DNA from: Candidatus Omnitrophota bacterium
GTDB lineage: Bacteria; Omnitrophota; Gorgyraeia; Zapsychrales; Zapsychraceae
Length of the DNA stretch: 64,000 nt
Assembly (NCBI GenBank): GCA_023247445.1
Contig: JAHFGL010000002.1
Span: forward strand, 553 to 64,552
Direction of reading: 5' to 3'
Positions 3,952-60,151 of this stretch are shown here, in pieces (positions within the stretch are counted from its first letter, which is position 1; each line of letters opens with the position of its first letter). A program made the position numbers and the translations under genes. The notes beneath the pieces are model-generated. The model was not told the DNA's origin and made no database searches. It worked only from the letters and a program-made list of their open reading frames with translations.

Positions 3952-4368
3952 TTAAATGATCAATTCAACACTCTTGAGCTCATTCTTGGCAGGCGCGTAT
4001 AACCGTTTGTCAGACGTGATAAAAACATCCGGTTTGGCCACACACGCGGCAGCCAATTGAATGGCGTCTAAACTTCTTAAGTTGTATCTCTCAATCAATT
4101 CCAACCCTTTTTCCTCAACAGCATCCGCCCAGATGACTTTCTCAAAAAAATTGAAATCCTTGGTTATTTCAGCCCTAAGAAAATTTAATTGCTCCCGGGT
4201 TAAAGTTCTCTCGTAAAGACGTCGATACAAGACAGAATTGATCTCCAGCCAGCAGATGGGGGAGACAATAATATTGGATGTTTGTTCGAGCAAGCGGAGG
4301 AATTTGTCTCTGCCTTCTTCCAATATATATTTTTTAGTCAGGGTTGAGGTGTCAACAAAGGATCGCAT
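3952..4368 (-). CDS. vapC: PIN-domain toxin (VapC-like)
   Basis: FVDTS near the N-terminus and SDKRL near the C-terminus; 138 aa; overlaps the upstream antitoxin gene. Confidence 0.8.
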   Translation of the reverse strand: MRSFVDTSTLTKKYILEEGRDKFLRLLEQTSNIIVSPICWLEINSVLYRRLYERTLTREQLNFLRAEITKDFNFFEKVIWADAVEEKGLELIERYNLRSLDAIQLAAACVAKPDVFITSDKRLYAPAKNELKSVELII

Positions 4369-4601: not shown

Positions 4602-4933
4602 AAGAGATGTCTCCTTTCTAGAAAAAGGATAACATTATGTTATGCATTTGTCAAACATATGTTAAATATATGTTAAAGCTTACAGCCGGCAGTTAACAGC
4701 CTGGTGGCTTAATGTGGAATTAAATTGAGCTCTTCCCGACTTCTTCAATTGATTCCGGGATTAATTCGGAGATAATCAAATAAATCATTGCGCCATCCCC
4801 AAAAGCAATAAAATCGCTGGATTTAAGGAACCGTTTCCTTTGAAATGTTTAATAATCATAATTATCGTCGATAAATGGACAAATTAAGAGACATGTGTGT
4901 TTTAAAAAATAAATATTTTTTGATGTGGAGGCC

Positions 4934-4999: not shown

Positions 5000-5230
5000 A
5001 CGAAAAGGTAAACCATTCTGCTACGTTCAAGCATTTTTATGTGTGAGCTTCGCAGAAATGCTCCTACGAAGCTCACAAACGAAAGTTTTGGAGCGAAGTA
5101 GAGCATTCGAAAGAATGGGGCACAAAGCTATAGGGCCCGAAAAGGCAGCCTAGCTACCGAAGAAATCAGGTGAACAAAATTCGGATGAACACACAAAGCC
5201 CATTCTTTAAAGAGTGGGTTTTTTTATTTG
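5000..5230 (+). promoter_or_regulatory. conserved 5'-leader element, copy A. It has a CGAAAAGGYAAACC box, a hairpin, the box GAGCGWAGTAG...GGGGCA.AAGCTA.AGG, and an AGCCTRGYTACCGAA box, followed by the terminator-like hairpin AAAGCCCATTCTTTAAAGAGTGGGTTTTTTT
   Basis: Homologous copies lie at 48754-48987 and, rearranged, at 33197-33440. Each is upstream of a giant secreted-protein gene, and each is followed by a U-tract hairpin and then the RBS. Confidence 0.6.
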
Positions 5231-5630: not shown

Positions 5631-8489
5631 TTGAATCCTATCCAGGTGAATCCTTCTGTAGTCGTTAACGTTGATTCTTTTAAAATCTCGGAGAATTCGC
5701 AAAAGCTTATTTTTATTGATAGTAATCTTGGGTTACAGAGTGCCAATATGGATGGCCAATATATTGGTAGTATTAATGATACCGATAAAAGAACTAGTGA
5801 AGCCAAATTTACGCTGGCACAGGATCAAGCTATCTTTAAGTCGCTGAATAATCTTTTTGCCGTTAAATTAGAAGGAGGCGAGAATAAAAGATTGATCAAT
5901 AACCATTCTGGGTATGTTGCAGATTTTAAAATAGTTCCTTCTGATGTGCCTCAAACACCTTTTATGTATTTCTGTCTTAATAATCAAATTTTTAGAGAAC
6001 CATTACGGGAACCGTTTCAAATATTAAATGAGTTACAACTTACACCAAACAGCGAAACAGTCGCGTGCCAATTAGATAATTCTATAAAAGATGGAAACAT
6101 TTATTACATGTCCTTGGACCCTGTCGATGGTAGAGGTAATAATTTATATATGTTTTATGGTCCAGGAAGCAGTTTAATTAATGGCTCAGGAAGAGTTGAA
6201 AAGTTTGCGCTGACTCCTGATCTTTCAAGACTTGTTATGTTGGAAGGAAATTTGGCTGATCCAACTAAATTTGATATTTTAGTTCGCCATGTATCAGGTT
6301 CACCTCAATTTAGGCTCAATGCCGCCGCAACTAATATTGTAGAGAAATTTGATGCGTGGGTTGTTACGCCCGATTCAAAGAGAATAATTTATCAAGACAA
6401 TAATGCCTTATATGTAAGAAATCTCGATGATACAGCCGGAACAACTAAGGTCTTCTTATTAGGGAATCTGGCTAGTGTCGCGCAATACGCAAAGATTGTT
6501 GTAACCGCCGATTCATCCAAGATTATTTACGTTAAAGGGACGACGGCAGGGTATAGTCTTTATGCCAAAGGGTTAGATGGTTCGGCAGAACAAAAAATTA
6601 GTGGAGATATTAATATAGAAGGCAGTATTCTAAATTTTCAGGTTTCTTCGGATTCCAAAAGAGCTGTTTATCGAACAAGTAGAAATGTTCTTTATGCGGC
6701 CGAGATAGATGGAAGTTTTCAAACTAAAATCAACGCAGTTGAACATCCTGATATGAGAATTGCATCTGATTTTAGCATTTCTCCTGATTCTAAAAGGGTT
6801 GCTTATACGTCGTATCTTTTAGCGGTCGGCGGTTTTGGAGAAAATCAAACTTATAAAAAATCCATGCATACGGTGACTATTAATTCAGCTACAGTCACAC
6901 AACCTAATGCAGCCCCAGTTTGGCGTACAGTGCAGAATCAAACCAGTATATTTGGGCAGGGCAGTGTAATTTCTATACCGGTGAGTGATGAGGATTCAAG
7001 ATTATCTATAAATATCACCGCTCGTCACCGTACACGAACTGATTTACCGGCTTTGGATAGGATATATTATACGACTGCGAAGGAGTTTCCTTGGCCTGCA
7101 ACAGCCGAAGTTGGAGTATGGGATGTGACGGCAACGGCTGCAGATGCTGGCGGGTTATCCGCAACATCGAATCCTTTTACAGTTACGGTCATACAGCCCA
7201 ACCGCCCACCGGAATTTACAGATTCTACTCCTATTTCTCGAACGGTAGAGGCTGGGAAACCGATGGCTACCATTATCTTGCCGGTTAGTGATCCAGATGG
7301 AGACATTTTAGAATTTTTGGAATATTCTCCAGTAGGAACGCTCCCATCTAATAATTGCTTATTTCCAATATTTAGTAAATCAGCAACGACGCCGGTTCAA
7401 TACAAAGTTGATTGGACACCATCAACTTTGGCTTGTAATCCTGGGAACTACACCTTTAAGGTTCTCATGAGAGACCCAAGTGGGTTACCTGTGACCTCTC
7501 CAGATATTACAATCACGGTCACACAACCTAATCGTGCACCGGAATTTACAGATTCTACTCCTATTTCTCGAACGGTAGAGGCTGGGAAACCGATGGCTAC
7601 CATTATCTTGCCGGTTAGTGATCCAGATGGGGACATCTTAGAATTTGTGGAATATTCTCCAGTAGGAACGGTCCCGTCTAATAATTGCTTATTCCCAGTA
7701 TCTAGCAAATCAGCAACGACGCCGGTTCAATACAAAGTTGATTGGACACCATCAACTTTGGCTTGTAATCCTGGAAACTACGCCTTTAAGGTTCTTATGA
7801 GAGATCCTGGTGGGTTAAGTGTGGCTTCTCCAACCATTACAGTAACTGTAACTAATCCTCCTAAAACACCCGAGGTGACTATTAATGGAACGCTCGTTAA
7901 TGGAACTAAGTTTACAGCCAGCACAGTGACTGTGAGGGGTAGTTTTATTACCTCTACTAAAGTTGCGACTGGTTTTCAAGGGTTTTCCGACAAAATAACA
8001 GAAGGTAGCCCTGATGGTGCGATTATTAAAAATTGGACAAGCCTTCCAGGAAACGCGTCCCAATTCGTAAATATAGCTATTACTGCATCAGGATTTACTT
8101 CTAATCTTGTTTCGGGTAGTAAAACTTATTATCTTTCCGTCAAAGCGCAGGATCGTATGGGGATTTATAGCAGTGTTGGCTCCGCAGCGTTTAAGGTTGA
8201 CGCCGTTAAGCCAAATGCTCCCCTGATTAATACGTTAAGACCTAGTAGTGTTTCTTCAATAACTGCCCAATGGACAATTCCCACGGATATGCCATCAAAT
8301 GGCTCGGGCATTGCCGGGTATGAGTATGAATTGTATAAAGGGTCAACCAGGGCCATACCTCTTACCTCGATAGGTGTTAATCAAAAAATCTTTACAGGGT
8401 TAAGTCGAGGAGCCTACACCTTGAGAGTACGAGCAATCGATAAGGTAGGTAATGGAAGCGATTTTGTAAGTAGAAGTATAACATTGTAA
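5631..8489 (+). CDS. giant secreted protein with PD40 (TolB-like) beta-propeller repeats, 2x tandem Ig/cadherin-like (He_PIG-like) domains and fibronectin-III-like domains
   Basis: Repeated SPDSKRVAY, TPDSKRIIY and SSDSKRAVY motifs; two ~110-aa near-identical PxFTDSTPISRTVEAGKP...DPDGD modules; a C-terminal FN3-like region. The track start 5631 is an alternative start; the true N-terminus is probably at 5276 with a frameshift. Confidence 0.8.
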   Translation: MNPIQVNPSVVVNVDSFKISENSQKLIFIDSNLGLQSANMDGQYIGSINDTDKRTSEAKFTLAQDQAIFKSLNNLFAVKLEGGENKRLINNHSGYVADFKIVPSDVPQTPFMYFCLNNQIFREPLREPFQILNELQLTPNSETVACQLDNSIKDGNIYYMSLDPVDGRGNNLYMFYGPGSSLINGSGRVEKFALTPDLSRLVMLEGNLADPTKFDILVRHVSGSPQFRLNAAATNIVEKFDAWVVTPDSKRIIYQDNNALYVRNLDDTAGTTKVFLLGNLASVAQYAKIVVTADSSKIIYVKGTTAGYSLYAKGLDGSAEQKISGDINIEGSILNFQVSSDSKRAVYRTSRNVLYAAEIDGSFQTKINAVEHPDMRIASDFSISPDSKRVAYTSYLLAVGGFGENQTYKKSMHTVTINSATVTQPNAAPVWRTVQNQTSIFGQGSVISIPVSDEDSRLSINITARHRTRTDLPALDRIYYTTAKEFPWPATAEVGVWDVTATAADAGGLSATSNPFTVTVIQPNRPPEFTDSTPISRTVEAGKPMATIILPVSDPDGDILEFLEYSPVGTLPSNNCLFPIFSKSATTPVQYKVDWTPSTLACNPGNYTFKVLMRDPSGLPVTSPDITITVTQPNRAPEFTDSTPISRTVEAGKPMATIILPVSDPDGDILEFVEYSPVGTVPSNNCLFPVSSKSATTPVQYKVDWTPSTLACNPGNYAFKVLMRDPGGLSVASPTITVTVTNPPKTPEVTINGTLVNGTKFTASTVTVRGSFITSTKVATGFQGFSDKITEGSPDGAIIKNWTSLPGNASQFVNIAITASGFTSNLVSGSKTYYLSVKAQDRMGIYSSVGSAAFKVDAVKPNAPLINTLRPSSVSSITAQWTIPTDMPSNGSGIAGYEYELYKGSTRAIPLTSIGVNQKIFTGLSRGAYTLRVRAIDKVGNGSDFVSRSITL
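7190..7850 (+). repeat. near-identical tandem duplication (2 x 330 bp) inside the giant gene, encoding two He_PIG-like domains
   Basis: GGAATTTACAGATTCTACTCC... occurs at 7211 and 7541 with about 95% nucleotide identity over ~250 bp. This also duplicates antisense ORFs 7067-7306 and 7448-7708. Confidence 0.85.
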
Positions 8490-15793: not shown

Positions 15794-16567
15794 ATGAGTA
15801 AAGTCCCGTTAGCAGTTGTTGTCATTACTAAAAATGAAGAAGCCAATATCGACATGTGCTTAGGAAGTGTGTATGGTTGGGCGGATGAGATTATTGTTGT
15901 TGATGATGAAAGCCGCGACCGCACAGTTGAGCTCAGCAAAAAATATACCAATAAAATTTTTCATCGCAAGATGGATAATGAAGGCAAGCATCGCAATTGG
16001 GCCTACGCGCAGGCGAAGAATGAATGGGTCTTAAGTTTAGATGCCGATGAATATGTCAGCGATCAGTTAAAAGAAGAGATCGCAAAGACGCTGGCTAACA
16101 CAAAATTTCATGCCTTTTCAATTCCACTTCGTAATTACATTGGAACATATTGGGTTCAGCATTCTGGCTGGTATCCCGCTGGGAAGCTGCGACTTTTCAT
16201 GAGAAGCCGGTTTAAATATGAAGAAGTCGAAGTTCATCCACGCGTATTTCTAGAAGGCGACACGGGTCATTTGACCAAAGATATTGTTCATAAAGGCTAT
16301 CCAGACTTTGAACATTTCTTGGGAAGTTTAAATCGGCAGACCACACTTGAAGCACGAAAATGGATTCAAACCGGACGCAAGATGAGTTTAGGTCGAGCGA
16401 TCTGGCGCACGATTGATCGTTTTCCACGATCATTCATCGGTAAGAAAGGTTACAAAGACGGATTTGTTGGTTTTATGATTGCTTTTTTTGCGTCGTTGTA
16501 TCAAATCATGAGCTACGCCAAATATTGGGAAATGAAAAATTTACATCAGGACAATATAAAACACTAA
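15794..16567 (+). CDS. family-2 glycosyltransferase (WaaE/KdtX-like LPS core GT)
   Basis: VVVITKNEEANIDMCLGSV...DEIIVVDDESRDRT DxD region. Confidence 0.8.
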   Translation: MSKVPLAVVVITKNEEANIDMCLGSVYGWADEIIVVDDESRDRTVELSKKYTNKIFHRKMDNEGKHRNWAYAQAKNEWVLSLDADEYVSDQLKEEIAKTLANTKFHAFSIPLRNYIGTYWVQHSGWYPAGKLRLFMRSRFKYEEVEVHPRVFLEGDTGHLTKDIVHKGYPDFEHFLGSLNRQTTLEARKWIQTGRKMSLGRAIWRTIDRFPRSFIGKKGYKDGFVGFMIAFFASLYQIMSYAKYWEMKNLHQDNIKH

Positions 16568-16679
16568 ACACAAAACTCTAAATAAACTTAAAATCCAAAT
16601 GCTAAAGTTTTAAACTTTTAGTTTTGTATTTTGAGTTTATTTAGAGTTTAGAGTTTTGGATTTAGGGTTTTCAAAAAAG
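16568..16679 (+). repeat. intergenic bipartite AT-rich element (a G-free ~39-nt half with AAATCCAAA, then a C-poor half with TTTGGATTT and AGTTTATTTAGAGTTT), forming nested hairpins
   Basis: ACAAAACTCTAAATAAACT pairs with AGTTTATTTAGAGTTT and AAAATCCAAAT pairs with TTTTGGATTT. The same half-site style is seen in the elements at 27766 and 59020. Confidence 0.5.
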
Positions 16680-27765: not shown

Positions 27766-27910
27766 ATACCAATAAACAAATTCCAAATACCAAACAATAT
27801 ACAAACTTCAATTAACAAATTACAAAAATTTTTTTATGTTTGGAAATTGTGATTTGTTTGTAATTTGGTGCTTAGAATTTGGGATTTTATTTTAGAAAAG
27901 GAAATTATAA
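27766..27910 (+). repeat. bipartite intergenic element: a 72-nt G-free half (AAATTCCAAATACCAAACAATATACAAA...) followed by a C-poor half (GTTTGGAAATTG...TGTAATTTGG...TTTGGGATTTT)
   Basis: Read directly. Homologous to 59020-59197, with a ~90% identical 28-mer and the shared 3' end GTAATTTGG..TTTGGGATTTT. Confidence 0.6.
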
Positions 27911-33196: not shown

Positions 33197-33440
33197 TTAT
33201 TAGAAATATTTATCGATCTTTTAATAATTATTTTTGACGAAAAGGCAAATTGTCAGTAATGACAAGACGCAAAACCAAAGGGTCCTTTTAAAGAGGATAG
33301 CCTAGTTACCGAATCAAGATATGAAAAGTTTAGAATACAATATAAACCTATTTTTTAATTATATGAGCTGAGCTTATATTTTTAAGGAGTAGGTTTTTTT
33401 ATTGGCAGGAGGGGCTAATTAGAATCAAAGCATTAAAAAA
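33197..33440 (+). promoter_or_regulatory. conserved 5'-leader element, copy B (rearranged/divergent): CTTAATGTAGTGT, GACGAAAAGGCAAA, GATAGCCTAGTTACCGAATC, then a U-tract hairpin before the RBS
   Basis: Shares the boxes of copies A and C; lies upstream of the NHL giant gene. Confidence 0.5.
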
Positions 33441-33458
33441 GTGTTTAAGGTGGGGAAA

Positions 33459-36400
33459 ATGAGAAAAAATTTCGCAACTAAGTTACAAAGAATCTTAAGT
33501 ATGAATGTGGCGGTATTTATTTTATTAATTTATTCAGGGGTTTCTTCCTCTGTAAGCACATTTAACTTACGTCATGTTGGCTCGACCCCGATCGAAATTG
33601 TTGTCAGTTGGGATCAGGTCTCTAATGCAGAGAAATACATCTTACAGCGAAGCACCAGTTCCTCATTTAATCCTGTGGATGCTGAATTTCAGTTTTCCAA
33701 AACAATTTTAGCTTATGGAGACACGGGCCATAGTAATCCAGCTGAGCCTATGCGGTTTAAGGAAAGGGAAAAATCACTCTTATTATTGTCTCCTGAGGTG
33801 GATTATTATTATCGGGTTTTCGCTTATGATCTTAATAATAATCTATTAGCGGAAAGTACGTCTGTATTTGCTAAGCCAGACGCTGGATCCCTAACAGATG
33901 CTTCAGGGCAGAGACCTGTTATTGAAGGAGATCTTCGAGCTGATATTGTCCTTGGGCAACCTAATTTTCTTGAGTTTAATGAGCTTCAACCAAATGCCAA
34001 TGGTGGCGTCAATATCGGAGGAGTTGTCGTTGATAAATCAATTCCTGGGCAAGATCGTTTATATATACTTGATGCAAATCATAATCGTGTTTTAGGTATG
34101 CCTTCAATCAATCCGGATTCTGGTGCTACTTCAGCTACGATTGTTTTAGGGCAACCAAATTTTGAATCGGCAGCATGTAATGGCGATATGACCTACGACG
34201 GTTATCCTACTAAAAGAAATCCAAAAGAAGATACTTTATGTTTTGCTGAGCCGGGCGAAAAGAGTCCTAGAGAAGTCGTGGTTTGGTCAATCATGAGTGT
34301 TGATTTGGATGGTAATTTGTATGTCGCAGACTTCTTAAATCAACGTGTTTTAAAGTATGTAAAGCCATTTGAAACAAATATGGTTGCAGATGAGGTTTGG
34401 GGGCAAGGAGAAGGTGTGGATAAGTTTACATCCAATACTTGTAATAAAGAAGGGCTCAGTGCTTCGTCTCTTTGTTTGCTTAAAGGATTTCCTATGGATC
34501 ATATGACGGCCAGTGTTCATATCGACCGAAATGGTAATTTATGGGTTGTGGATTTAGGTAATCGTAGAGTTTTAAGATACCCAAAAATTGGCAATGAAAT
34601 TTCTAAGATAGCGGATTTGGTTTTGGGTCAGGATAATTTTACGACCATCAAAGAAAACATCCCTGTTGATAGTCTTAAGTATTTGTATTACCCAAAATTT
34701 GTTGTCAGCGATGAGTCATCAGGGGACATTTATGTAGGCGATCAAGGAGATGAAACTCATCCTACGAGGATTTTAAAGTATGCTGCAGAAAATATTCCAT
34801 TAGCAGGACAAGGTGGAGAGAGTGCATTAACTGCTCAAGAGATTATATTTGGAAATACTTCTACGTTACCAAATCAGACAAACAATCATTGGCGAATTAC
34901 TAGCTTATCCTATGATTCGACAAGGCATGGCCTGTGGATTCAGGCAGAGGGGAAGAATTATCTTTATAATTTTTTAAATAATAGTGTAACTAAAATTGTT
35001 CTCTCTGGATATGACCCCCGGGGAGTGGATGTTGATTCTAGGGGAAATCTTATCACTGTAGGATCCTATGATGACCTTCGTGATGTCAATTTATTTTTGG
35101 CAACGGATATTGATAACGTAAATGTAACTGCTCAGAACCCTCTCACTTCAGATAATAGAAAGAATATTTTTAGAACTGGCCCTTCATTAGTGATGGATCA
35201 CGGGTTAAGTGGTTTAAAGAATGTTACTGGGTTGACTATTGCTGGGAATCAGTTGGTAATTAGCGATTTTGGTCGACTTCTTTTTTGGAATGATTACCGT
35301 ATTCTTTCTACAGGTCAATCAGCCGATGGGGAATGGGCTTATGGTTATGATAAGAATATGGCTTCTCCAAGAGTCGATGCGCAAAATAGATTGTGGTTTT
35401 CAAGTCTTTTGCCACTTAATTCGGATGTTCCCACTCAAGGTGAAAATTGTTCAGAAGAGTCTTGCCTGCATGCGGTGTTGCTTCCTCTGGCACCCGACTC
35501 ATCTTTAGTTAAGAGTTTTCCAATAAATAAAGTTGAATTACGAGCTAAAAGAAAATTTATGACTGGCATTGAATATCAGGATTTTATACGGTTTTATCCA
35601 TCAACGGATCGAAGTGGAAATGGGGTTTTATGGATTGCTACACACAATAAAGGTGTATTTCGTTTAGTAAATATTAATAAAGAAAAGGATGCGAGTCGTG
35701 GTCCATATGTTGATGTTGTCTTGGGTCGGGCAAATAAGTTAGATCAGGTCTGTTCTTCTGAGGCAGGTTATAATCCAACCGCCAGTACTATCTGTAACGC
35801 TAATGATGTCCGTGTTGATTCGGAAGGGAATGTATGGGTTGTCGATAAACCTTACGGAGAGGATGAGGAATTTACTAGATTACTTATGTTTTCATCTATT
35901 TCGATTCCTGATTCTGATGATATTCGCCATGAAACAGTGTTTGGCATTCCAGCTTCTAAGGTCTATGGGACCGGAGGTGATTTTCTGCGCCGAACGAATC
36001 CAGAATTAGATGTTGATGCGAGCCCTTTTGTTCCATCTATTTCGACAGAAAAAAGATCAATGATATTAGATACTCATTATGATGACTCAATCTTTCCTTT
36101 GGTTTATTTAGATTATGATAATGTCAATATCCCGCAATTTTCTCTAGGAGACGCAACTATGTTTGGCATTGATTCTACCTTTGATCCCGAGGGTAATTTT
36201 TATATGGGGGACAAGGTTTGGAATCGTGTGCTTATTTATAAAAAGCCGTTACTAAACGTTACCAAATATAATCATCCTCCTCAATTAAATATGCCCAATC
36301 AGATTCCTGTTATTGAAGGGGTAAATATTTCATTTCAAGTAACGGGTTATGATTTAGATGGAGACATATTTACTGTTTCTGCAAACGGATTGCCTTTAGG

Positions 36401-37367
36401 GGCGCATTTTGACCCTGTAACTCGACGATTTGACTGGACGCCCACATTGGAGCAAGCTGGCACTTATCAAATTACCTTTCAGGCCTCTGACACAAAAGGG
36501 GGCATTTCCACAAACAGCATTTCGATCACCGTAATAGATAGTGTGCTTTTATCGCCAAGTAATTTGTCGGCTAGGACATTGAATACACCGGTTGTTGGAT
36601 TAACTTGGGTTGATAATTCTAATTGTGAAAATTCTTTTAGTATTGAGCAAAGCGTGGATGGAATTAATTATCAAGTGGTGGGAAGTGCCTCTGCCAATAC
36701 TACCTCTTATAATGTACAACCGAGCGTAATGAACCAAACTCTTTATTATCGTGTTCGAGCTATGCGAGGCAGCATGGGATCAGACCCTTCTGATGCGATT
36801 GCTGTTAATGATCCTCTCTATGTAAAAGTAGTCGAAAAAGGAACAGGGACTCCTTTGGCGTTTATTCAGGTATCTTTGCGGGGAGTAAGAGCAAGTGATG
36901 GGAAATTAATTAAAGTTCAAGGACTGACGGACGCTGATGGCTATGTTGTTTTAAGAAACGTAACTTCTCCGAAATTCAATTATCGAGTAAGGGGTAAAGC
37001 GATAAGACTCGAAGCGAAGTATCAAATCAAGACCATGACCGTTACAGATATCAATCACCTTATTTCTATGGAAGGAGCATTAAGTGGCGTTGGTCAGGGT
37101 TCTCAAACCGGTCAATTTACTTTAGATGGATATGTTACTAGCTCGGATGAAACTTTTGCGATTGCCGACGCGGAAATTGCATTGATACAACTAGATGGGG
37201 CCAAGATTCGTTTAACGGTCAGAAGCGGTAGTGATGGATATTTTGCATTTAATAATTTGAAAAATGGTCGGTATAGGGTTGTGGTTACTAAAAAGGGTTA
37301 TCGATTTAATGAGCAGACAGATATTATTAATAATGAAAACTTCGAGATGAATTTTATAGCGAAATAA
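33459..37367 (+). CDS. giant secreted NHL-repeat beta-propeller protein with He_PIG Ig-like domain, FN3 and C-terminal CarboxypepD_reg-like domains
   Basis: GNLYVADFLNQRVLKY and GNLWVVDLGNRRVLRY NHL blades; the HPPQLNMPNQIPVIEG...DLDGD Ig-like module; C-terminal beta-sandwich repeats. The start is taken at ATG 33459 (RBS AGGTGGGG). Confidence 0.8.
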   Translation: MRKNFATKLQRILSMNVAVFILLIYSGVSSSVSTFNLRHVGSTPIEIVVSWDQVSNAEKYILQRSTSSSFNPVDAEFQFSKTILAYGDTGHSNPAEPMRFKEREKSLLLLSPEVDYYYRVFAYDLNNNLLAESTSVFAKPDAGSLTDASGQRPVIEGDLRADIVLGQPNFLEFNELQPNANGGVNIGGVVVDKSIPGQDRLYILDANHNRVLGMPSINPDSGATSATIVLGQPNFESAACNGDMTYDGYPTKRNPKEDTLCFAEPGEKSPREVVVWSIMSVDLDGNLYVADFLNQRVLKYVKPFETNMVADEVWGQGEGVDKFTSNTCNKEGLSASSLCLLKGFPMDHMTASVHIDRNGNLWVVDLGNRRVLRYPKIGNEISKIADLVLGQDNFTTIKENIPVDSLKYLYYPKFVVSDESSGDIYVGDQGDETHPTRILKYAAENIPLAGQGGESALTAQEIIFGNTSTLPNQTNNHWRITSLSYDSTRHGLWIQAEGKNYLYNFLNNSVTKIVLSGYDPRGVDVDSRGNLITVGSYDDLRDVNLFLATDIDNVNVTAQNPLTSDNRKNIFRTGPSLVMDHGLSGLKNVTGLTIAGNQLVISDFGRLLFWNDYRILSTGQSADGEWAYGYDKNMASPRVDAQNRLWFSSLLPLNSDVPTQGENCSEESCLHAVLLPLAPDSSLVKSFPINKVELRAKRKFMTGIEYQDFIRFYPSTDRSGNGVLWIATHNKGVFRLVNINKEKDASRGPYVDVVLGRANKLDQVCSSEAGYNPTASTICNANDVRVDSEGNVWVVDKPYGEDEEFTRLLMFSSISIPDSDDIRHETVFGIPASKVYGTGGDFLRRTNPELDVDASPFVPSISTEKRSMILDTHYDDSIFPLVYLDYDNVNIPQFSLGDATMFGIDSTFDPEGNFYMGDKVWNRVLIYKKPLLNVTKYNHPPQLNMPNQIPVIEGVNISFQVTGYDLDGDIFTVSANGLPLGAHFDPVTRRFDWTPTLEQAGTYQITFQASDTKGGISTNSISITVIDSVLLSPSNLSARTLNTPVVGLTWVDNSNCENSFSIEQSVDGINYQVVGSASANTTSYNVQPSVMNQTLYYRVRAMRGSMGSDPSDAIAVNDPLYVKVVEKGTGTPLAFIQVSLRGVRASDGKLIKVQGLTDADGYVVLRNVTSPKFNYRVRGKAIRLEAKYQIKTMTVTDINHLISMEGALSGVGQGSQTGQFTLDGYVTSSDETFAIADAEIALIQLDGAKIRLTVRSGSDGYFAFNNLKNGRYRVVVTKKGYRFNEQTDIINNENFEMNFIAK

Positions 37368-44069: not shown

Positions 44070-46475
44070 ATGAAGAATAAATATAAATCATTATTGTATA
44101 TTGTTTCAATAATTGTTTTTCTAGTGACGACAAGCTTAAGCAATGTCCAACCGCTTTTTGCTGACCATGCTGAGGAAGATTCAGAAATGATTGTCTTAAC
44201 CAATGGTCTGCTTAATCAAGTTAAACGATTGATGAAGGCCCAAGGTTTAGATAGGCAAAAACAAGTCGAAAGGATCACCAATCAAATTACTAAAAGAAAA
44301 GCCAAGATTGTTGATCTGCTGAAGAAAAACCCTAAACAAGCCTTGCGTCATATTTTACCGGCAAACACTTTATCGAGTTTCCCTCCTGAAATAAGAGAAT
44401 TATTAGAAGTAAATGTCGATTTTACCGGGGAATTAACAACTAGTATCATTAACTTCAATGATGGGACAACCAAGGTGGTGTATTCTTTTAAAAACGCGAG
44501 TGAACCAAATAAGGTTTACGAAATTTATTTTGCCGATAATGCCCCTATTTTACCTTCGGGATCTAAGGTAAGGATTCATGCCAATAAAATTGACACCAAT
44601 GTTGCACTGGTAGGAGGAACAACGGATGTTCAACCTATAGCAGTTACTCCTAACATCGTTACTGGTGAACAAAAAACCATTGTAATTCCTGTTAATTTTC
44701 AAGATAAAGTTTTGGCATGTTCTGATGCAGATATTGCATCTTCTTTTTTTACAAGTGCCAATTCTGTAAAGAATTATTTCTCTGAAAGTTCATATAATAA
44801 TATAAATATCACGGGAGATGTCGCCCCTCGCGTGACAGTCCCTTATAAGAGTACGGACAGTTGTCCCTCTTTTTTTGCGGTGACTGACGCGGCTGATCAA
44901 GCTGTCACAGCGCTGGGAATTAATCTCAACAATTATAATCGAAGGGTTTATGAACTTCCTAAAGCAACTTGCAATTATGCTGGGATAGCAACGATCGGCG
45001 GAAATCCTAGTCGAGCACTTACTTATCTTTGTCAGACCCCGTCTGTCGTGGCTCACGAATTTGGTCACAACCTTGGTTGGTATCATGCCGCGACTGGAAC
45101 TTTGACAGCCCCTATTTCAGAGTATGGGGATACTTCTTGTGTTATGGGATCATCTAGTGCTACTGGGATTCGTCAACCCAATACTCCACATAAAATAGAG
45201 GCAGGGTGGATTCCTGTTGGGCGTGTCAGAACGGTAATAGCCAATCAAACGGAGTCAGCTGATCATACGTACACAATTTATAATTCAGAAAATGGTAACA
45301 CGAGTGAAGTTCAGGCTTTGAAATTTCATAAATCAGATACTAATGAAGATTATTATTTATCTTATCGACATCCAGTTGGTTTTGACACCGTTTTAGCAAG
45401 TCAGTATGCCGATAAAACCAGCATTCATCGTTGGAAGGGAGTTCCTGGGAATCGAACATTTTTTCTTCAATCCCTTTCAGATGGGATGACTTTTGCTGAC
45501 CCGACTAATGGAATTGTTGTTAAGCAATTAAGTCATGATGCGAATGTGTCTGTTGTCTCTGTCGATTTTAGTGGTGGATCACAATGTAATGTTTTCGCCC
45601 CATCGGTAAACATCGCGCCTGTAAGCCAAAGTGGTAGTCATGGACAACAATTATCTTACACGGTTTCGGTTACTAATAATGATTCATCGATTTGTGGTAA
45701 TAGCGTTTTTAATTTAACTTCATCGGTTCCTTCAGGCTGGTCAGGTCAATTCTCGGTAAACCAATTAACCTTAGCGCCAGGAGCTAGTGGTTCAGTTAAT
45801 ATGAACGTTACCTCTAAGGACACAGCGCTTGACGGGGTTTATACTATTACCGTTAATGCAGCGGATCTGATGAATCCAACTCATGTTGCCAGTGCAACTG
45901 CTTCTTATGTTATTTTTGTCTTTGGTGAGGTTCGCGGGCATGTAATAGATGAAAAAACTAAGACCCCGATTGCAGGAGCACGTGTTACCGTCATGGGAAA
46001 AGATGAGTATAACAACAGAATAGCTGTTCGAGTGATGACGGACGCTCAGGGGAATTTTAAAATAACCAATTTACCATCTCCTGCATCAAAATATAGCTTG
46101 AAGATTAGAGCTCAACGCGGGAGAGCTTCCTATCAATTCCAACGGGAATTATGTGTTACAAGCAATGATTCTTCCTTAGGAGATATCGCGGGGAAATTGA
46201 TTCGTTCTGAAAATCCCGCAGGGTATGCCGGAGATAATACTGTCAGTGGATTTTATGGAATATATCAACATAACCTAACTCTATCTGGGAAGGATAGTAA
46301 TGGAAACCCCGTTAAATTAAAAATAATAAGTGATAAAGACGGATACTTTCTATTTGAAAATGTATATTCTGGACAGTACAAGCTAAAAGTATTAGACGCT
46401 CCTGTCATGGGGGGCTTTAGTATAGATGTCGTGGTGAATTCCCAAGATGTTGACTTGGGACAATTGTATCGATGA
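44070..46475 (+). CDS. secreted metzincin-like zinc metalloprotease (HEFGHNLGWYH) with CARDB/NEW-like and two CarboxypepD_reg-like C-terminal domains
   Basis: Signal peptide; HExxHxxGxxH at VVAHEFGHNLGWYHA; C-terminal GEVRGHVIDEKTKTPIAGARVTV... and KIISDKDGYFLFENVYSGQYKLKV beta-sandwich modules. Confidence 0.8.
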   Translation: MKNKYKSLLYIVSIIVFLVTTSLSNVQPLFADHAEEDSEMIVLTNGLLNQVKRLMKAQGLDRQKQVERITNQITKRKAKIVDLLKKNPKQALRHILPANTLSSFPPEIRELLEVNVDFTGELTTSIINFNDGTTKVVYSFKNASEPNKVYEIYFADNAPILPSGSKVRIHANKIDTNVALVGGTTDVQPIAVTPNIVTGEQKTIVIPVNFQDKVLACSDADIASSFFTSANSVKNYFSESSYNNINITGDVAPRVTVPYKSTDSCPSFFAVTDAADQAVTALGINLNNYNRRVYELPKATCNYAGIATIGGNPSRALTYLCQTPSVVAHEFGHNLGWYHAATGTLTAPISEYGDTSCVMGSSSATGIRQPNTPHKIEAGWIPVGRVRTVIANQTESADHTYTIYNSENGNTSEVQALKFHKSDTNEDYYLSYRHPVGFDTVLASQYADKTSIHRWKGVPGNRTFFLQSLSDGMTFADPTNGIVVKQLSHDANVSVVSVDFSGGSQCNVFAPSVNIAPVSQSGSHGQQLSYTVSVTNNDSSICGNSVFNLTSSVPSGWSGQFSVNQLTLAPGASGSVNMNVTSKDTALDGVYTITVNAADLMNPTHVASATASYVIFVFGEVRGHVIDEKTKTPIAGARVTVMGKDEYNNRIAVRVMTDAQGNFKITNLPSPASKYSLKIRAQRGRASYQFQRELCVTSNDSSLGDIAGKLIRSENPAGYAGDNTVSGFYGIYQHNLTLSGKDSNGNPVKLKIISDKDGYFLFENVYSGQYKLKVLDAPVMGGFSIDVVVNSQDVDLGQLYR

Positions 46476-46490
46476 CCTACGGGAAAGATA

Positions 46491-46541
46491 AAATAGGGAC
46501 ACGTACCTTTTCTAAAAAAGGTACGTGTCCCTATTTTATTA
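46491..46541. terminator. bidirectional perfect hairpin terminator (AATAGGGACACGTACCTTTT / AAAAGGTACGTGTCCCTATT)
   Basis: A 20-bp perfect inverted repeat flanked by A/T runs. A related GACACGTACCTTTT hairpin follows the NHL gene at 37372-37420. Confidence 0.75.
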
Positions 46542-55121: not shown

Positions 55122-56819
55122 ATGGCCATCAAAACAAAATTTCCTATCGGTCAGCTTCTCATCGAGAAGAAGATCATTACCCCCGAACAATTAGAGATAG
55201 CGCTTAAGAAACAAAAAGAAACCAACGAGCCGCTGGGCGTAACCCTCATTAAATTAGGTTTTATTGAAGAAGAAACGATTTTTTTGCCCGTTTTAGCCGG
55301 ACAAATGGGTGTTGATTATGTGAATTTGAAAGATATTGAAATCCCTCCCGAGGTCTTAAGCAAAATTCCCGCCAAGTTTGCCAGTCATTATAAAATTATG
55401 CCGTTTGCCTTTAGGAGTAATACGATTTCGATTGCAACGGCCGTTCCCATCGACATTCATCTGCTGGATGAAATTGGATTGGTTGTTAATTATCCACTGC
55501 AATCTGTTTTAGCGAGCGAAAAAGATATATTGGAAGCCATCCGAAAATATTATGGAGTTGGGGCGGAGACGATTGAAAAAATGATGGGCTCGGTGCAGAA
55601 GTCGAATCAACAGGAAACAGAAATTGCGGAGATTGACGAAACAGGTTCCGAGGCCTCGATTAGCAAATTTTTAAATCAAATTCTTCTGCAGGCTTATCGT
55701 GATCGCGCCAGTGATATCCATATTGAACCCTTTGAAGATAATTTGCAAATTCGTTATCGAGTTGATGGCATCCTTTATGATGCCAAAGTTCCTCCTAACA
55801 TTAAACATTTTAAAGATGAAATTAATTCTCGGATTAAAATCTTATCAAATCTTAACATCGCCGAGAAACGGTTGCCTCAGGACGGCCGTTTTAAAGTACG
55901 AGTTAAGGATGTTGATATTGATCTTCGCGTTTCATTTTTGCCAACGCCGTATGGAGAGAGTGTTGTCTTACGCGTTTTGAATTCGACCCGCTTATTTAGT
56001 TTTGAAGAATTAGGACTGATCGATTATGAACGCAAAATTCTTGAAGAGTTAGTTAAGAAGCCTCACGGAATTATTTTTTTAACCGGGCCAACCGGAAGTG
56101 GAAAGACAACGACACTTTATTCGTGTCTTTCTCAAGTGAACACAGAAGATAGAAAAATTATCACAATTGAAGATCCGATTGAATATCAACTTAAAGGCAT
56201 TACGCAAATTCAAACTAATCCCAGAATTGGATTAACCTTTGCCCATGGACTACGTTCGATGCTTCGTCATGATCCTGATATTATGATGGTCGGAGAAGTT
56301 CGGGATCGTGAAACAGCGGAAATTGCGATTCAAGTGGCTTTAACTGGGCATTTAATTTTTTCAACACTGCATACCAATGACGCGGCCAGCGGCGTTACGC
56401 GTTTGCTCGATATGGGGGTTGAGCCATTTCTGGTGACGAGCACCATCGAATGTTTTATTGCTCAACGATTGATCCGCATGTTGTGTTCGAAATGTAAACA
56501 GCCAACGAAATTAAATGATCAGCTTCTTAAAGATTTTGAAGGTCAGGTTGAAATTCCTAAAGATATGACGATTTATGAAGGCAAAGGTTGCGAGTCCTGT
56601 AAAATGACCGGTTATATTGGTCGAGAAGCCATTTATGAGTTTTTGCTAATGACAGAACCGATTCGACAACTGATTATGCAACGCGCGACCGTTAATCAGA
56701 TTAAAGAAAAAGCGATCGAGCAAGGAATGAAAACACTGCGGCAGTCGGGATGGGATAAGGTTGTGCATGGATTAACGACGCCGGAAGAAGTTGTCAGGGT
56801 CACTAAAGAAGAAACTTAG
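55122..56819 (+). CDS. gspE: type II secretion / type IV pilus assembly ATPase (GspE/PilB family) with N-terminal T2SSE_N domain
   Basis: Walker A GPTGSGKTTT, the Asp box, Walker B, and the Cys4 cluster CSKCKQ...CESCKMTG. Confidence 0.9.
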   Translation: MAIKTKFPIGQLLIEKKIITPEQLEIALKKQKETNEPLGVTLIKLGFIEEETIFLPVLAGQMGVDYVNLKDIEIPPEVLSKIPAKFASHYKIMPFAFRSNTISIATAVPIDIHLLDEIGLVVNYPLQSVLASEKDILEAIRKYYGVGAETIEKMMGSVQKSNQQETEIAEIDETGSEASISKFLNQILLQAYRDRASDIHIEPFEDNLQIRYRVDGILYDAKVPPNIKHFKDEINSRIKILSNLNIAEKRLPQDGRFKVRVKDVDIDLRVSFLPTPYGESVVLRVLNSTRLFSFEELGLIDYERKILEELVKKPHGIIFLTGPTGSGKTTTLYSCLSQVNTEDRKIITIEDPIEYQLKGITQIQTNPRIGLTFAHGLRSMLRHDPDIMMVGEVRDRETAEIAIQVALTGHLIFSTLHTNDAASGVTRLLDMGVEPFLVTSTIECFIAQRLIRMLCSKCKQPTKLNDQLLKDFEGQVEIPKDMTIYEGKGCESCKMTGYIGREAIYEFLLMTEPIRQLIMQRATVNQIKEKAIEQGMKTLRQSGWDKVVHGLTTPEEVVRVTKEET

Positions 56820-56868
56820 TAATCGTATTTCGTATTTAGTACATCGTACTTCGCTGAGGATTGATGAG

Positions 56869-57228
56869 ATGGAGAAGATTAAAAATTTTAAAGAATTGAG
56901 GATATGGCAGAAAGGGATAGAAATTGTTAAAGATGTTTATTCGATGACCAAAGATTTTCCCAAAGAAGAATTGTATGGTTTAACAAGTCAAATGAGACGC
57001 TCTGCAATTTCAATACCATCTAATATTGCCGAAGGATTTAAAAGATTTCATGATAAAGAGTATAAGCAGTTTTTGCATATCACTTTAGGATCTGCTGCTG
57101 AATTAGAAACACAGATTATTATCTCTAAGGAACTTAATTTTATAGACCAAGAGAAGTTAGATAACATTCTAGAAAAATTAGATCATTTGGCCAAAATGAT
57201 TTCTTCTCTTTTAAATAAAATACAATAA
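56869..57228 (+). CDS. four-helix-bundle protein (23S rRNA intervening-sequence protein family, TIGR02436-like)
   Basis: MEKIKNFKELRIWQKGIEIVKDVY...ELYGLTSQMRRSAISIPSNIAEGF...GSAAELETQ, the canonical 4HB signature; ~119 aa from ATG 56869. Confidence 0.8.
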   Translation: MEKIKNFKELRIWQKGIEIVKDVYSMTKDFPKEELYGLTSQMRRSAISIPSNIAEGFKRFHDKEYKQFLHITLGSAAELETQIIISKELNFIDQEKLDNILEKLDHLAKMISSLLNKIQ

Positions 57229-57264
57229 CGATGTACGAAGTACGAATGACGAAATACGAAGTAT

Positions 57265-58503
57265 ATGCCAAGATTCCACTACAAAGCCAAAGAAGGTCCA
57301 ACCAAAATTATTGATGGAACCATCGAGGCTGATACGCTCGATGGGGCGATCAGTAAAATTATTGGTCTTAGGTTAACACCCCTTGATGTCGTTTTAGAAA
57401 ATCAACAGGAAGTAGAGAAGAAGGCCAAGGCAACAGCGCTTCTTAAAACGGACTTTAACTTTTTTAAGCGCGTTGGATTAAAAGATGTCGTTTTATTTAC
57501 GCGACAGATGAGTGATTTAATTGAGGCCTCAGTACCGCTACTGCGTTCAATACAAATCGTCAGCAATCAGACACAAAATATTTATTTTAAAGGGTTGATC
57601 CAAAATATGGCGACCTTTGTCAAAGATGGTGGATCATTTTCTGAAAGTTTATCCAAACATCCGCAGATTTTTTCTAACCTTTATGTCAATATGGTTAAGA
57701 CAGGCGAAGTCGGTGGACAGTTGGAACTTGTTTTAAAGCGTCTGGCCATTTATTTGGAGAAAGAACATGAGACGCGTTCTAAAGTTCGCTCGAGTTTGGC
57801 CTATCCTGCATTGATTCTCGTTGTCGGGGTTATCACTATTTTTGTGCTTTTGACCTTTGTTATTCCGCGACTGACCGTTATGTTTGAAGATCTTAATCAA
57901 TCTTTGCCCACACCAACCCTGATTCTTATTCAGATGAGTAATGTCTTTGCTCAGTATTGGTGGCTGATGATTATTGTTGTGGTTTTGGTTGCGGTGTATT
58001 TTAAAAAATGGAGTAATTCGGAAAATGGTCGACTCTGGTTAGATTCATCGTTATTAAAAATTCCTTTATTAGGGAATTTTATTCGCATTGTTGAAGTGGG
58101 CCGGTTAGCGAGGACTTTGGGAACATTGCTAGAAAGTGGTGTAACGATGACTAAGGCGTTAAAATCGGTTGCTGGACTGATTGATAATGTTGTCTTACGG
58201 GAGGAAGTTAGAAGAATGTCAGAAGAGGTGACGCAAGGATCTAGTTTAAGAAATGCCTTGAAACAATGTTCGTATTTTCCTGAAATGGCTGTTAATATGA
58301 TTTCCGTCGGTGAAGAGACGGGACGATTGGATCACAGCCTTTATAAAGTCGCTGAGACCTTTGAACGTGAGGCTGATGAAACGGTAAAAAGTATCGTGTC
58401 CTTGGTGGGGCCACTGGTTTTAGTTGTTGTTATTTCTATTGTTGGTTTTGTTGTTATTTCAATGTTACTTCCTATTTTTCAAATGAATTTAATTGTTCAA
58501 TAG
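57265..58503 (+). CDS. gspF: type II secretion inner-membrane platform protein (GspF/PilC family)
   Basis: Two GspF repeats, 3 TMs, N-terminal MPRFHYKAKEG...GL.PLDV. Confidence 0.85.
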   Translation: MPRFHYKAKEGPTKIIDGTIEADTLDGAISKIIGLRLTPLDVVLENQQEVEKKAKATALLKTDFNFFKRVGLKDVVLFTRQMSDLIEASVPLLRSIQIVSNQTQNIYFKGLIQNMATFVKDGGSFSESLSKHPQIFSNLYVNMVKTGEVGGQLELVLKRLAIYLEKEHETRSKVRSSLAYPALILVVGVITIFVLLTFVIPRLTVMFEDLNQSLPTPTLILIQMSNVFAQYWWLMIIVVVLVAVYFKKWSNSENGRLWLDSSLLKIPLLGNFIRIVEVGRLARTLGTLLESGVTMTKALKSVAGLIDNVVLREEVRRMSEEVTQGSSLRNALKQCSYFPEMAVNMISVGEETGRLDHSLYKVAETFEREADETVKSIVSLVGPLVLVVVISIVGFVVISMLLPIFQMNLIVQ

Positions 58504-59019: not shown

Positions 59020-59197
59020 ATTCCAATATACAAATCTTAAACACCAAACAATACAATAAATTCCAATTACCAAATAATATACAAATCCCAATGGCTAAGA
59101 TTTACATTTAGTTTTGTATTTTGTTAATTGGAATTTGTTTGGTATTTGTGATTTTGGATTTGTATATTGCCTGTAATTTGGGATTTGGGATTTTAAA
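59020..59197 (+). repeat. bipartite intergenic element (a ~72-nt G-free half, then a ~100-nt C-poor half), homologous to 27766-27910
   Basis: AAATTCCAATTACCAAATAATATACAAATCCCAAT ... TTGGAATTTGTTTGGTATTTGTGATTTTGGATTTGTATATT...TGTAATTTGGGATTTGGGATTTT. Confidence 0.6.
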
Positions 59198-59692
59198 ATG
59201 CAGATATTCAAGTCCAAACAAGCCGCGTTTACTTTAATAGAAATAATTTTAGTTGTTCTTATTTTATCTGTCATCGCCTGCTTAGCCATTCCCAACTTTG
59301 GCCAAACATATTCACAGCTGCAGCTTAAACAAACGACGGAAGATTTGGCTTATTTAATGCGTTATGCGCAGACTTTCGCCATCAGTAACAGTCAAAATGT
59401 TCAGTTAGAATTTGATTCTGAATTTTCATCTTACTGGTTGAACAAAAGTACGGCAGATACGTCGGTGGCCGATTCTTCTTTTGTCCGAATTAATGGGCGT
59501 ATGGGGCGGACATTTGATATTCCAAGGACAATAAAGATTAAAGCAGAAAACGCCTATATTCTTTTTTATCCCGATGGAAAAATAGATAAGGTTCGTATCG
59601 ATGTGTGTCAGGAACAAAAATGTCTGGCGATTTCAACCAAAGAACAAAAAGGATATGTGAGGGTATTTGATGCGAGTTTATTGGATGATTAA
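59198..59692 (+). CDS. gspH: minor pseudopilin GspH-like
   Basis: Prepilin motif KQAAFTLIEIILVVLIL. Confidence 0.75.
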   Translation: MQIFKSKQAAFTLIEIILVVLILSVIACLAIPNFGQTYSQLQLKQTTEDLAYLMRYAQTFAISNSQNVQLEFDSEFSSYWLNKSTADTSVADSSFVRINGRMGRTFDIPRTIKIKAENAYILFYPDGKIDKVRIDVCQEQKCLAISTKEQKGYVRVFDASLLDD

Positions 59693-59713
59693 AAGGGTCA
59701 TGGGTCAAGGGTC

Positions 59714-60151
59714 ATGAGAGTGCCTTGCGCCTTGCGCCTTGCCCCTTTTAAGATTTTAAGAAATTGTAAACAAGGTTCTTTACTGCTTGAGGCCTTATTA
59801 TCTGTTGTCATCCTTTCGGTTAGCATTTCCGTCATTATTCAGGCCATGACAGCTAGCTTAAGATCGACGATTTATAGCGCTGAATATACGAAGGCAATGA
59901 TTCTGTTGGAAAATAAAATGGTAGGACTTATGCAACAATCAATAGGGCAGAGCTCAACGGATACACCGACTGATGATTCAGTGACAGACGAAAAGTTTCA
60001 ATATTTGATAACGGAAGATTCATTGCCCGGCGATGATGCCAAAAATTTAGAAAAGGTTGCGCTGGCGATATCTTGGAAGAGCAAAGGAAAAAGCAATAAT
60101 ATTTCTGTAAGTACGTATAAATTTAATCCACCTGAATTGGCATCTCAATGA
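59714..60151 (+). CDS. gspI: minor pseudopilin GspI-like (the start codon is uncertain; the prepilin site is G|SLLLEALL)
   Basis: KQG-SLLLE matches the G/(F,M,S)xxxE prepilin peptidase motif. The track start 59714 gives an unusually long leader, and a TTG at ~59735 is an alternative start. Confidence 0.65.
   Translation: MRVPCALRLAPFKILRNCKQGSLLLEALLSVVILSVSISVIIQAMTASLRSTIYSAEYTKAMILLENKMVGLMQQSIGQSSTDTPTDDSVTDEKFQYLITEDSLPGDDAKNLEKVALAISWKSKGKSNNISVSTYKFNPPELASQ

Follow-up and report, generated by a model that had tools for sequence, protein, structure and literature searches.

A four-helix-bundle gene between complementary heptamer arrays in the gspE-gspF spacer of an Omnitrophota type II secretion operon: a putative mobile cassette of the 23S rRNA intervening sequence type

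Why does a gene of the 23S rRNA intervening sequence (IVS) protein family lie between two protein-coding genes of a type II secretion system (T2SS) operon? The question is posed by a stretch of 64,000 nucleotides from a Candidatus Omnitrophota bacterium (GenBank assembly GCA_023247445.1, contig JAHFGL010000002.1, positions 553 to 64,552), called the window here and numbered from its first letter, in which an open reading frame (ORF) for a four-helix-bundle (4HB) protein of 119 aa occurs near the head of a gspE-F-G-H-I-J-K-L/M-like operon, between gspE and gspF. Knowledge of 23S rRNA IVSs and the 4HB ORFs inside them goes back to about 1990, and thousands of standalone 4HB genes bear the annotation 'four helix bundle protein', yet we know of no accepted function or origin for the IVSs or their ORFs. 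The answer that we favour, with reasonable but not high confidence in its full mechanism, is that positions 56820-57264 constitute an IVS-type mobile cassette lodged in an mRNA spacer and built from a 5' array, a leader with its own Shine-Dalgarno (SD) sequence, the 4HB ORF and a 3' array. Its parts and the adjoining genes are:

55122..56819, + strand: gspE, encoding a GspE/PilB-type secretion ATPase (PF00437, E 8.7e-133; TIGR02533, 605 bits, slightly below the cut-off of 630)
56817-56819, + strand: TAG stop codon of gspE, 1-3 nt upstream of the cassette
56820..57264, + strand: entire inserted cassette (5' arm, leader, 4HB ORF and 3' arm), occupying the gspE-gspF spacer
56821..56853, + strand: 5' arm, tandem heptamers TCGTATT TCGTATT TAGTACA TCGTACT TCG, with T-N-G-T every 7 nt (Tandem Repeats Finder (TRF) period 7, 4.4 copies)
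56854..56868, + strand: leader with an SD-like GAGGA (56856-56860) 8 nt 5' of the ATG, placed by sequence and fold in the loop, outside the stem
56869..57228, + strand: 4HB gene (23S rRNA IVS protein family), 119 aa, under purifying selection (profile matches, 2GSC, dN/dS, the ratio of nonsynonymous to synonymous substitution rates)
57229..57263, + strand: 3' arm, complementary heptamers CGATG TACGAAG TACGAAT GACGAAA TACGAAG TA, with AC.A every 7 nt (TRF period 7, 5.1 copies)
57265..58503, + strand: gspF (PF00482, E 3.6e-61; TIGR02120, 377 bits)

Membership of the small gene in the IVS/4HB family, proposed earlier in a reading of the letters made without database searches (hereafter the sequence-only reading), is supported by three profiles that all score above their curated cut-offs, namely PF05635 (23S_rRNA_IVP; E 3.4e-41, 140.2 bits against a cut-off of 33.8, residues 8-112 aligned to positions 1-105 of the 106-position profile), TIGR02436 'four helix bundle protein' (134.6 bits, cut-off 24) and NF008911 (156.5 bits, cut-off 137). 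The protein begins with MEKIKNFKELRIWQKG, and of the conserved family motif GxxRxxxSxxxNxxE (PMC3936711) the segment ...QMRRSAISIPSNIAEG... holds RxxxSxxxNxxE, the leading G being displaced (GLTSQMR). The closest solved structure, as judged by a sequence match only, is 2GSC (XCC0516 of Xanthomonas; E 1.5e-22, residues 8-118). Values of dN/dS were 0.07-0.14 against the homologues at loci L081, L084 and L086, with dS saturated, and 0.07 against the nearest homologue, which argues for a functional protein under strong purifying selection. The exact protein was found only on contigs of the same organism. A longer ORF starting at TTG 56791 (145 aa) was considered and rejected, as homologues start at MEKIKNFKEL and are 119-121 aa long.

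Whether the gene is an ancestral member of the operon or a later arrival was addressed at orthologous junctions, using 80 genomes with a GspE relative (43-73% identity) and the four closest GspF relatives, 84 junctions altogether. The gene is absent from all 84 orthologous gspE-gspF junctions, and none of the 80 genomes has a 4HB gene at less than 4 kb from gspE. The closest GspE relative has a gspE-gspF gap of 14 nt, and in the four closest GspF relatives (60-62% identity), one of which comes from the same two samples as the window organism, gspE and gspF are separated by an 8-nt gap or share a TAATG stop/start overlap. Excising 56820-57264 would rebuild a tight junction (...GAAGAAACTTAG|ATGCC...). 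Since 84 orthologous junctions lack the gene and the genes of the nearest relatives abut or overlap, comparative evidence identifies the cassette as an insertion into a previously tight or overlapping gspE|gspF junction. The sequence-only reading had the gene filling this junction, which is correct, at distances of 50 and 37 nt, each one too many: the spacers are 49 nt (gspE-4HB, 56820-56868) and 36 nt (4HB-gspF, 57229-57264). At only 65% identity, the nearest GspF is too distant for the insertion to be dated or for a target-site duplication to be defined. GC content of the ORF in the window is 0.29 as compared to 0.40-0.42 in the flanking genes, and in all hosts the 4HB ORF is on average 11 points poorer in GC than its flanks, with a value that follows that of the host (r = 0.84). 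Low GC was not accepted as proof of foreign origin and counts as weak evidence, because amino-acid composition could contribute to it.

The insertion is bracketed by a pair of arms, whose sequences and coordinates had been given exactly in the sequence-only reading, and whose construction from about five heptamers each was not seen there. The 3' arm begins directly after the 4HB stop codon and ends 1 nt 5' of the gspF ATG, spanning the gspF translation-initiation region. Positions 56823-56853 and 57229-57259 form an inverted repeat of 31 nt with 84% complementarity, and because the arms are heptamer arrays, a stem is possible in three registers about 7 nt apart, two further registers being offset by ~7 nt from the first. 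Folding of 56815-57270 (456 nt) paired the arms in both the minimum free energy and the centroid structure, so that the long-range stem postulated earlier is indeed predicted. The arm-arm duplex has an energy of -32.8 kcal/mol, a value never reached when the right spacer was dinucleotide-shuffled 1000 times (average -17.3, standard deviation 3.6), nor at any of 2000 random window positions of equal geometry. Of eight matches to the TACGAAG-type motif in the window, with 1.15 expected, seven fall within the arms of the cassette.

This architecture recurs in relatives of the gene. Retrieval of metagenomic loci with close 4HB homologues (52-79% identical) gave 80 loci, of which 64-67 were testable, and the 80 nt 5' of each ATG were compared with the 80 nt 3' of the stop codon. 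Of 67 4HB genes, 58% had complementary flanks (z < -2.5; duplex energies from -30 to -70 kcal/mol), as compared to 12% among 165 neighbouring ORFs (Mann-Whitney p = 2e-14). The arms mostly abut the ORF, the median gap being 9 nt on the side of the ATG and 2 nt on that of the stop codon. As the arms cannot be aligned, the comparison of cognate with non-cognate arm pairs serves as a covariation test: cognate pairs had a mean energy of -35.8 kcal/mol and non-cognate pairs -24.4, and no permutation out of 10000 reached the observed mean. Complementarity of the arms is thus locus-specific across about 60 relatives.

Beyond complementarity, the arms have a common periodic grammar. Period 7 was the best period in 56 of 57 scoring arrays (26/27 upstream and 30/30 downstream). 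Consensus units of the 5' arm contained CGT or AGT in 35 of 35 cases (chance 0.24), with a reciprocal count of 1/35 for the ACG/ACT type, and those of the 3' arm contained ACG or ACT in 32 of 34 (reciprocal count 4/34). The heptamers themselves vary by locus (TCGTATG, TAGTATA, GCGTGAA, TAGTCGT, GAGTATT and others), and G exceeds C in the 5' arm at 33 of 37 loci. An alignment of five elements from five contexts showed an invariant T.GT per 7 nt in the 5' arm and AC.A per 7 nt in the 3' arm, and no conservation outside the arms. Retention of the core despite saturation of synonymous sites argues that it is under a sequence constraint beyond that of pairing. Period-7 arrays were counted at 3.3 per 10 kb in the 4HB loci and, at distances of up to 120 nt from a 4HB ORF, at 26.7 per 10 kb, as compared to 0.4-0.6 per 10 kb away from 4HB genes in loci selected by gspE; near 4HB ORFs the enrichment is 16-fold over the rest of the same contigs, a comparison made mostly with coding DNA, so that an intergenic enrichment would be smaller. 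A separate observation concerns a divergent 4HB paralogue at L158 (5144-5503, - strand), which shares its contig with a close homologue and is bracketed by ATAGACC / GTCTATG without the (C/A)GT core; this hints that the core is tied to the protein clade and not to the host, with recognition by the protein over a host factor.

If the arms and the ORF form a single element, they should be found together at unrelated sites, and this was observed. At L118 (xerC|4HB|hslV) and L122 (fabG|4HB|acpP) the proteins are 88% identical, arms and leader are the same, and homology begins and ends at the outer ends of the arms. TACGAAG-type arms are common to the window, L081 (79%) and L083 (74%), the latter at an ilvD|ilvB junction in a genome of ~65% GC, hence in three unrelated contexts. 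In non-syntenic pairs, sharing of arm 6-mers grows with protein identity, from 0.05-0.06 at 30-60% to 0.17-0.21 at 70% or more. L084 has a full cassette in the clpP|clpX spacer and, in the next spacer (clpX|lon, 4715-4900), a gene-less copy with the same TATCGTA-type arms and ~65 nt of homologous leader and no ORF. Because the leader is retained, this copy derives from the full element, as a derivative of the neighbouring cassette resembling a miniature inverted-repeat transposable element (MITE). Close homologues were found in ilv, clp, fab, hsl, cas and sigma-factor operons, and among 40 4HB genes flanked by an ORF at either end, 30 run in the direction of both neighbours, at median distances of 56 and 62 nt. 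Arms and ORF are inherited as one unit, and the earlier suggestion of a small insertion element is borne out both by this behaviour in unrelated operons and by the 84 empty junctions. Two further loci have a 4HB gene beside genes of the GspE/GspF type: at L103 (898-1275) it lies between GspE/PilB-like and GspF/PilC-like genes with no detectable arm pairing (z = +0.7), and at L088 (191-550) directly 5' of a GspF/PilC-like gene.

Does the same layout occur in a true 23S rRNA IVS? A tblastn search of plasmid records for annotated 4HB genes, of which twelve were examined, located such a gene inside a 23S rRNA gene on replicon AZO_p2 of Azospirillum lipoferum 4B (Rfam large subunit rRNA model, 2139 bits). 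CAGAGGA/CGGATGA-type heptamers lie upstream of the 4HB ORF and their complements downstream (z = -7.9). To our knowledge no heptamer arrays are to be expected in an uninterrupted helix 45 of 23S rRNA, and if so, the Azospirillum arrays are part of the insert rather than of its target. In the IVS of Coxiella, RNase III ends were mapped in a terminal stem of 28 bp, and three to four tandem GACAGAT heptamers, in strain-variable number, lie upstream of the ORF (PMC4990558). The IVS-like anatomy proposed in the sequence-only reading consequently has counterparts in both, the Azospirillum IVS having its 4HB ORF between complementary heptamer arrays. Complementary flanks also surround 4HB genes of Nostoc edaphicum (GGGAACA / TGTTCCC, z = -8.5), Geminocystis (AAAAGGG / CTTTTCC, z = -10.9) and Riemerella (AGGTTTA / AACCTTG, z = -5.0), and complementary heptamer arrays, weaker in pairing (z ~ -3), were found in Leptolyngbya, Picosynechococcus (cmr2|4HB|cmr3) and Stanieria. 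Gemmatirosa (Gemmatimonadota) has the same layout in 8-base units. On sequence grounds the architecture is common to relatives in several phyla, including cyanobacteria, Bacteroidota and, with 8-base units, Gemmatimonadota, and this indicates that a general cassette, made of ORF, leader and two complementary heptamer arrays, has the rRNA IVS among its landing sites. Units of 8 nt were seen at two loci, in Gemmatirosa (L167; GGGCAGGA / CTCCTGCC) and in L109 (~2300-2360 and 4165-4250), where AACCGGCT / GGTTACCC bracket a sigma / 4HB / anti-sigma block, so that period 7 is dominant and not absolute.

From these observations a mechanism can be proposed for the cassette in the window. Read-through of the T2SS operon is the most likely way in which it is transcribed, because a promoter and terminator scan of the + strand revealed no such site inside the cassette, with counts equal to those of shuffles. 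In the transcript the arms would anneal to a ~31-bp stem that encloses the ORF in its loop, a prediction supported by the locus-specific complementarity in the ~60 relatives. Cleavage of this stem by RNase III, by analogy with 23S rRNA IVSs, is in our judgement about evenly balanced between true and false; if it occurs, it would release separate gspE, 4HB and gspF-M RNAs and would free the gspF start region, which is occluded by the 3' arm, ending as this does 1 nt short of the start codon. The insertion would thereby be non-polar, in effect an intron without ligation. A search for an RNase III signature found none within the 64-kb window, which is uninformative for the remaining genome. Rfam likewise recognised nothing within the cassette and no rRNA in the window. 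As for the protein, its strong purifying selection and the retention of the heptamer core despite saturated synonymous sites suggest, tentatively, that a 4HB oligomer might bind its own arms and so serve maintenance or spread of the cassette. A precedent is found in Avd of diversity-generating retroelements (DGRs), described as S23-like, whose pentamer binds an imperfect 11-bp RNA stem-loop via flipped-out bases between protomers (bioRxiv 10.1101/2023.10.23.563531). A 7-nt periodicity of unpaired stem positions, which would fit flipped-out bases for an oligomeric binder, was not detected in RNAduplex structures, which are noisy. Among viral contigs no relatives were found, and PADLOC defence models gave no match to the protein.

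Several observations weigh against this explanation. About 40% of the close homologues have no significant arm pairing in their 80-nt flanks, and at L161 on pPg_01 of Pseudanabaena galeata (cas6|4HB|cas4) the arrays, AAAGCTA x14 upstream and AAAGCCA x10 downstream, are direct and not inverted; the complement TAGCTTT lies farther upstream in an arrangement unlike that of the Omnitrophota cassettes. Heptanucleotide repeats are the commonest simple repeats of 5-11 nt in prokaryotes and have been attributed to polymerase slippage (PMC4679880), so that period 7 alone is not specific to 4HB genes, and gene-less heptamer hairpins occur at junctions without a nearby 4HB gene. No transposase, reverse transcriptase or recombinase was linked to the cassette among the surrounding genes. 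The nearest 4HB homologue is saturated at synonymous sites and no recent transposition event was caught. The TA dinucleotide present at both ends of the cassette is indistinguishable from the repeat units. Sense and antisense duplex energies showed no asymmetry (23 vs 26 loci; Wilcoxon p = 0.29), and mismatches are not preferentially G-U on the mRNA strand, so that selection could act on DNA and not on RNA. RNase III cleavage and the uncoupling of gspE from gspF-M are plausible by analogy.

The most probable of the rivals is one in which the arms are DNA-level terminal inverted repeats, or folded single-stranded DNA sites, for a trans-acting transposase or recombinase that reads several (C/A)GT sites at each end, RNA pairing and RNase III being incidental. 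Such an explanation, which we regard as unlikely, would account for a trinucleotide core every 7 bp that points inward at both ends, as in multi-site transposon ends, for the lack of strand asymmetry in pairing energy and for the mobility of the unit. It is at odds with the four non-core positions of the heptamer, which vary freely between elements and are nevertheless complementary between arms, a pattern that implies selection for pairing rather than for a fixed end sequence; it also has to contend with rRNA IVS stems that are proven RNase III substrates (PMC4990558) and with surrounding genes among which no transposase accompanies the cassette. DNA-level ends are compatible with the cassette explanation.

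Less likely still is the possibility that the heptamer hairpin, as one among many gene-less hairpins in the spacers of the host genome, was there first and that a bare 4HB ORF later entered its loop, in which case the arms would mark the target and not the element. The window itself gives this idea some substance, as it contains four further gene-less spacer hairpins, including two in the T2SS operon, which all begin at the stop codon of the preceding gene:

59020-59197: gene-less hairpin in the gspG|gspH spacer, with an A/C-rich 5' arm (CCAAATA-like units) and a G/T-rich 3' arm (ATTTGGG, ATTTGTG)
59689-59751: gene-less hairpin in the gspH|gspI spacer, GGGTCAT x3 paired with GCCTTGC x3.7
16558-16671 and 27770-27881: gene-less imperfect hairpins between co-directional genes, with arms up to 52 nt and 79% complementary

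The hairpins at 16558-16671 and 27770-27881 likewise have an A/C-rich 5' arm, in ~7-nt units (AAACACT, AAATACC), and a G/T-rich 3' arm. In the nearest relatives (60-62% GspF identity; P0124 contig, L173) gspG and gspH overlap, which leaves no room for a hairpin. Gene-less heptamer hairpins are also found in many gspE-gspF spacers of other Omnitrophota (L003, L004, L008, L034 and L048), and the frequency of 0.4-0.6 heptamer arrays per 10 kb given above comes from loci picked regardless of 4HB genes. Against these points stand the arm polarity of the gene-less hairpins in the window, whose C-rich 5' arm is the reverse of that in 4HB cassettes, and the near confinement of the TACGAAG motif to the cassette in the window. 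A pre-existing target also fits poorly with the co-inheritance of arms and leader with the ORF into unrelated operons, with the leader retained in the gene-less copy of L084, and with the arrays of the Azospirillum 23S IVS, which as general knowledge has it would not be expected in an uninterrupted helix 45.

A third alternative is very improbable, namely that the 4HB protein is a domesticated, operon-specific regulator or T2SS accessory factor, with the stem setting the GspE:GspF-M ratio: the position exactly at the ATPase|platform junction, the 3' arm across the gspF start region and the 4HB genes beside GspE/PilB-like and GspF/PilC-like genes at L103 and L088 would suit it, but the gene is missing from 84 of 84 orthologous operons, its close homologues reside in ilv, clp, fab, hsl, cas and sigma-factor operons, and its GC lies 11 points below that of host genes. 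An identity as Avd, the accessory gene of a DGR, or as what is left of such a gene can practically be dismissed. The matches on which it would stand are weak (bAvd PF22296, 29.2 bits against a curated cut-off of 40; NF033474, 28.5 bits against 80; PHROG 3206 'Avd protein of DGR', 6e-11) as compared to 135-156 bits for IVS-family models, and the genes within ~6 kb, all T2SS or surface-protein genes, include no reverse transcriptase, no search for template and variable repeats having been made.

Set beside known systems, the favoured cassette is closest to 23S rRNA IVSs with an S23p/4HB ORF (Leptospira, Coxiella, Xanthomonas, Brucella and Azospirillum), with which it has in common the protein family, the location of the ORF in the loop of a ~30-bp stem, tandem heptamers beside the ORF (GACAGAT in Coxiella, CAGAGGA/CGGATGA in Azospirillum) and read-through from the host unit. 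It differs from them in that it occupies an mRNA spacer between protein genes instead of helix 25 or 45, in its (C/A)GT core as compared to their purine-rich units, and in that RNase III excision is proven for the IVSs and postulated here by analogy. Correia or nemis elements of Neisseria and similar MITE-like hairpins are small inverted-repeat insertions that are co-transcribed with their neighbours and whose stems are RNase III substrates; unlike the cassette, Correia elements have no ORF, are multi-copy and near-identical, and end in fixed sequences not made of tandem short units. By the yardstick of MITEs and insertion sequences, the cassette does have terminal inverted repeats (31 nt), which consist of tandem units and vary from one element to the next. 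Cyanobacterial short tandemly repeated repetitive (STRR) sequences and other heptanucleotide repeats (e.g. TAACTGA of Beggiatoaceae; PMC4679880) resemble the arms as intergenic head-to-tail 7-mers, and on cyanobacterial plasmids heptamer arrays directly flank 4HB genes; STRRs have been described as direct arrays without a gene, whereas the cassette consists of two complementary arrays around an ORF. The REPIN-RAYT system offers another parallel, as one gene is flanked by inverted repeat units that recur gene-less as spacer hairpins, but the protein here is matched only by 4HB-family models and not an HUH/Y1 transposase, and the repeat sequence is locus-variable. Avd is a distant homologue with the same fold that acts as an RNA-stem-loop-binding pentamer, and DGR RNA pairs sequences up- and downstream of its cargo; unlike in DGRs, the genes around the cassette include no reverse transcriptase, and its Avd scores are below the cut-offs.

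In the literature we found, with moderate confidence given that subscription journals were thinly covered, no paper on standalone 4HB genes bracketed by complementary heptamer arrays or tied to STRR-type repeats. The sole partial precedent for a heptamer-flanked 4HB gene is that of the Coxiella IVS heptamers (PMC4990558). On the evidence of this locus and its relatives, IVS-type cassettes also colonise tight operon junctions (T2SS, clp, ilv, fab, hsl and cas) and possess a concrete anatomy, with a trinucleotide core per 7 nt and the remaining positions covarying between arms. This further accounts for the 'association' of 4HB genes with cas and other operons. 4HB genes wedged in cas operons, e.g. 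between cmr3 and cmr2, have been read as functionally associated with them (PMC3936711), for which the cassette model is a simpler reason. An insertion that excises itself at the RNA level suggests a route by which polarity could be avoided, and for annotation purposes the arms could be treated as predicted RNA-processing sites within operons. As a more speculative extension, which we hold to be doubtful, PF05635 proteins in general might bind periodic heptamer arrays, as RNA stems or DNA ends, through a clade-specific core, (C/A)GT every 7 nt here and purine-rich units in cyanobacterial and proteobacterial clades, and might thereby spread both the cassette and gene-less hairpins. The 4HB protein would then drive or protect spread into operon spacers and rRNA helices, with a mobilising step that might depend on a nuclease or, as in the case of Avd, on a reverse transcriptase acting in trans. 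If true, rRNA IVSs, scattered 4HB paralogues and at least part of the intergenic heptanucleotide repeats, including cyanobacterial STRRs, would be one RAYT/REPIN-like system.

Some minor observations were made alongside. In another Omnitrophota metagenome-assembled genome (L009), the gspE-gspF spacer measures 1.1 kb and contains a cyclic di-GMP-I (c-di-GMP-I) riboswitch (5804-5926, 39.3 bits) in a segment bounded by ~40-nt inverted repeats (CCAATCGGGAAC...), so that this junction has received different inserts in different lineages. The window has two c-di-GMP-I riboswitch aptamers of its own (Rfam RF01051), one at 5087-5161 (44.8 bits) upstream of ORF 5631-8489 and the other at 33234-33313 (63.5 bits) upstream of ORF 33441-37367 (1308 aa). 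Within the 952-aa ORF 5631-8489, a 330-bp unit occurs twice in tandem at 7177-7832 with 91% identity, as if a domain within a surface protein had been duplicated. Just 3' of an 801-aa ORF ending at 46475, a perfect 24-bp palindrome with a 4-nt loop at 46488-46539 is probably a terminator or a protein-binding site.

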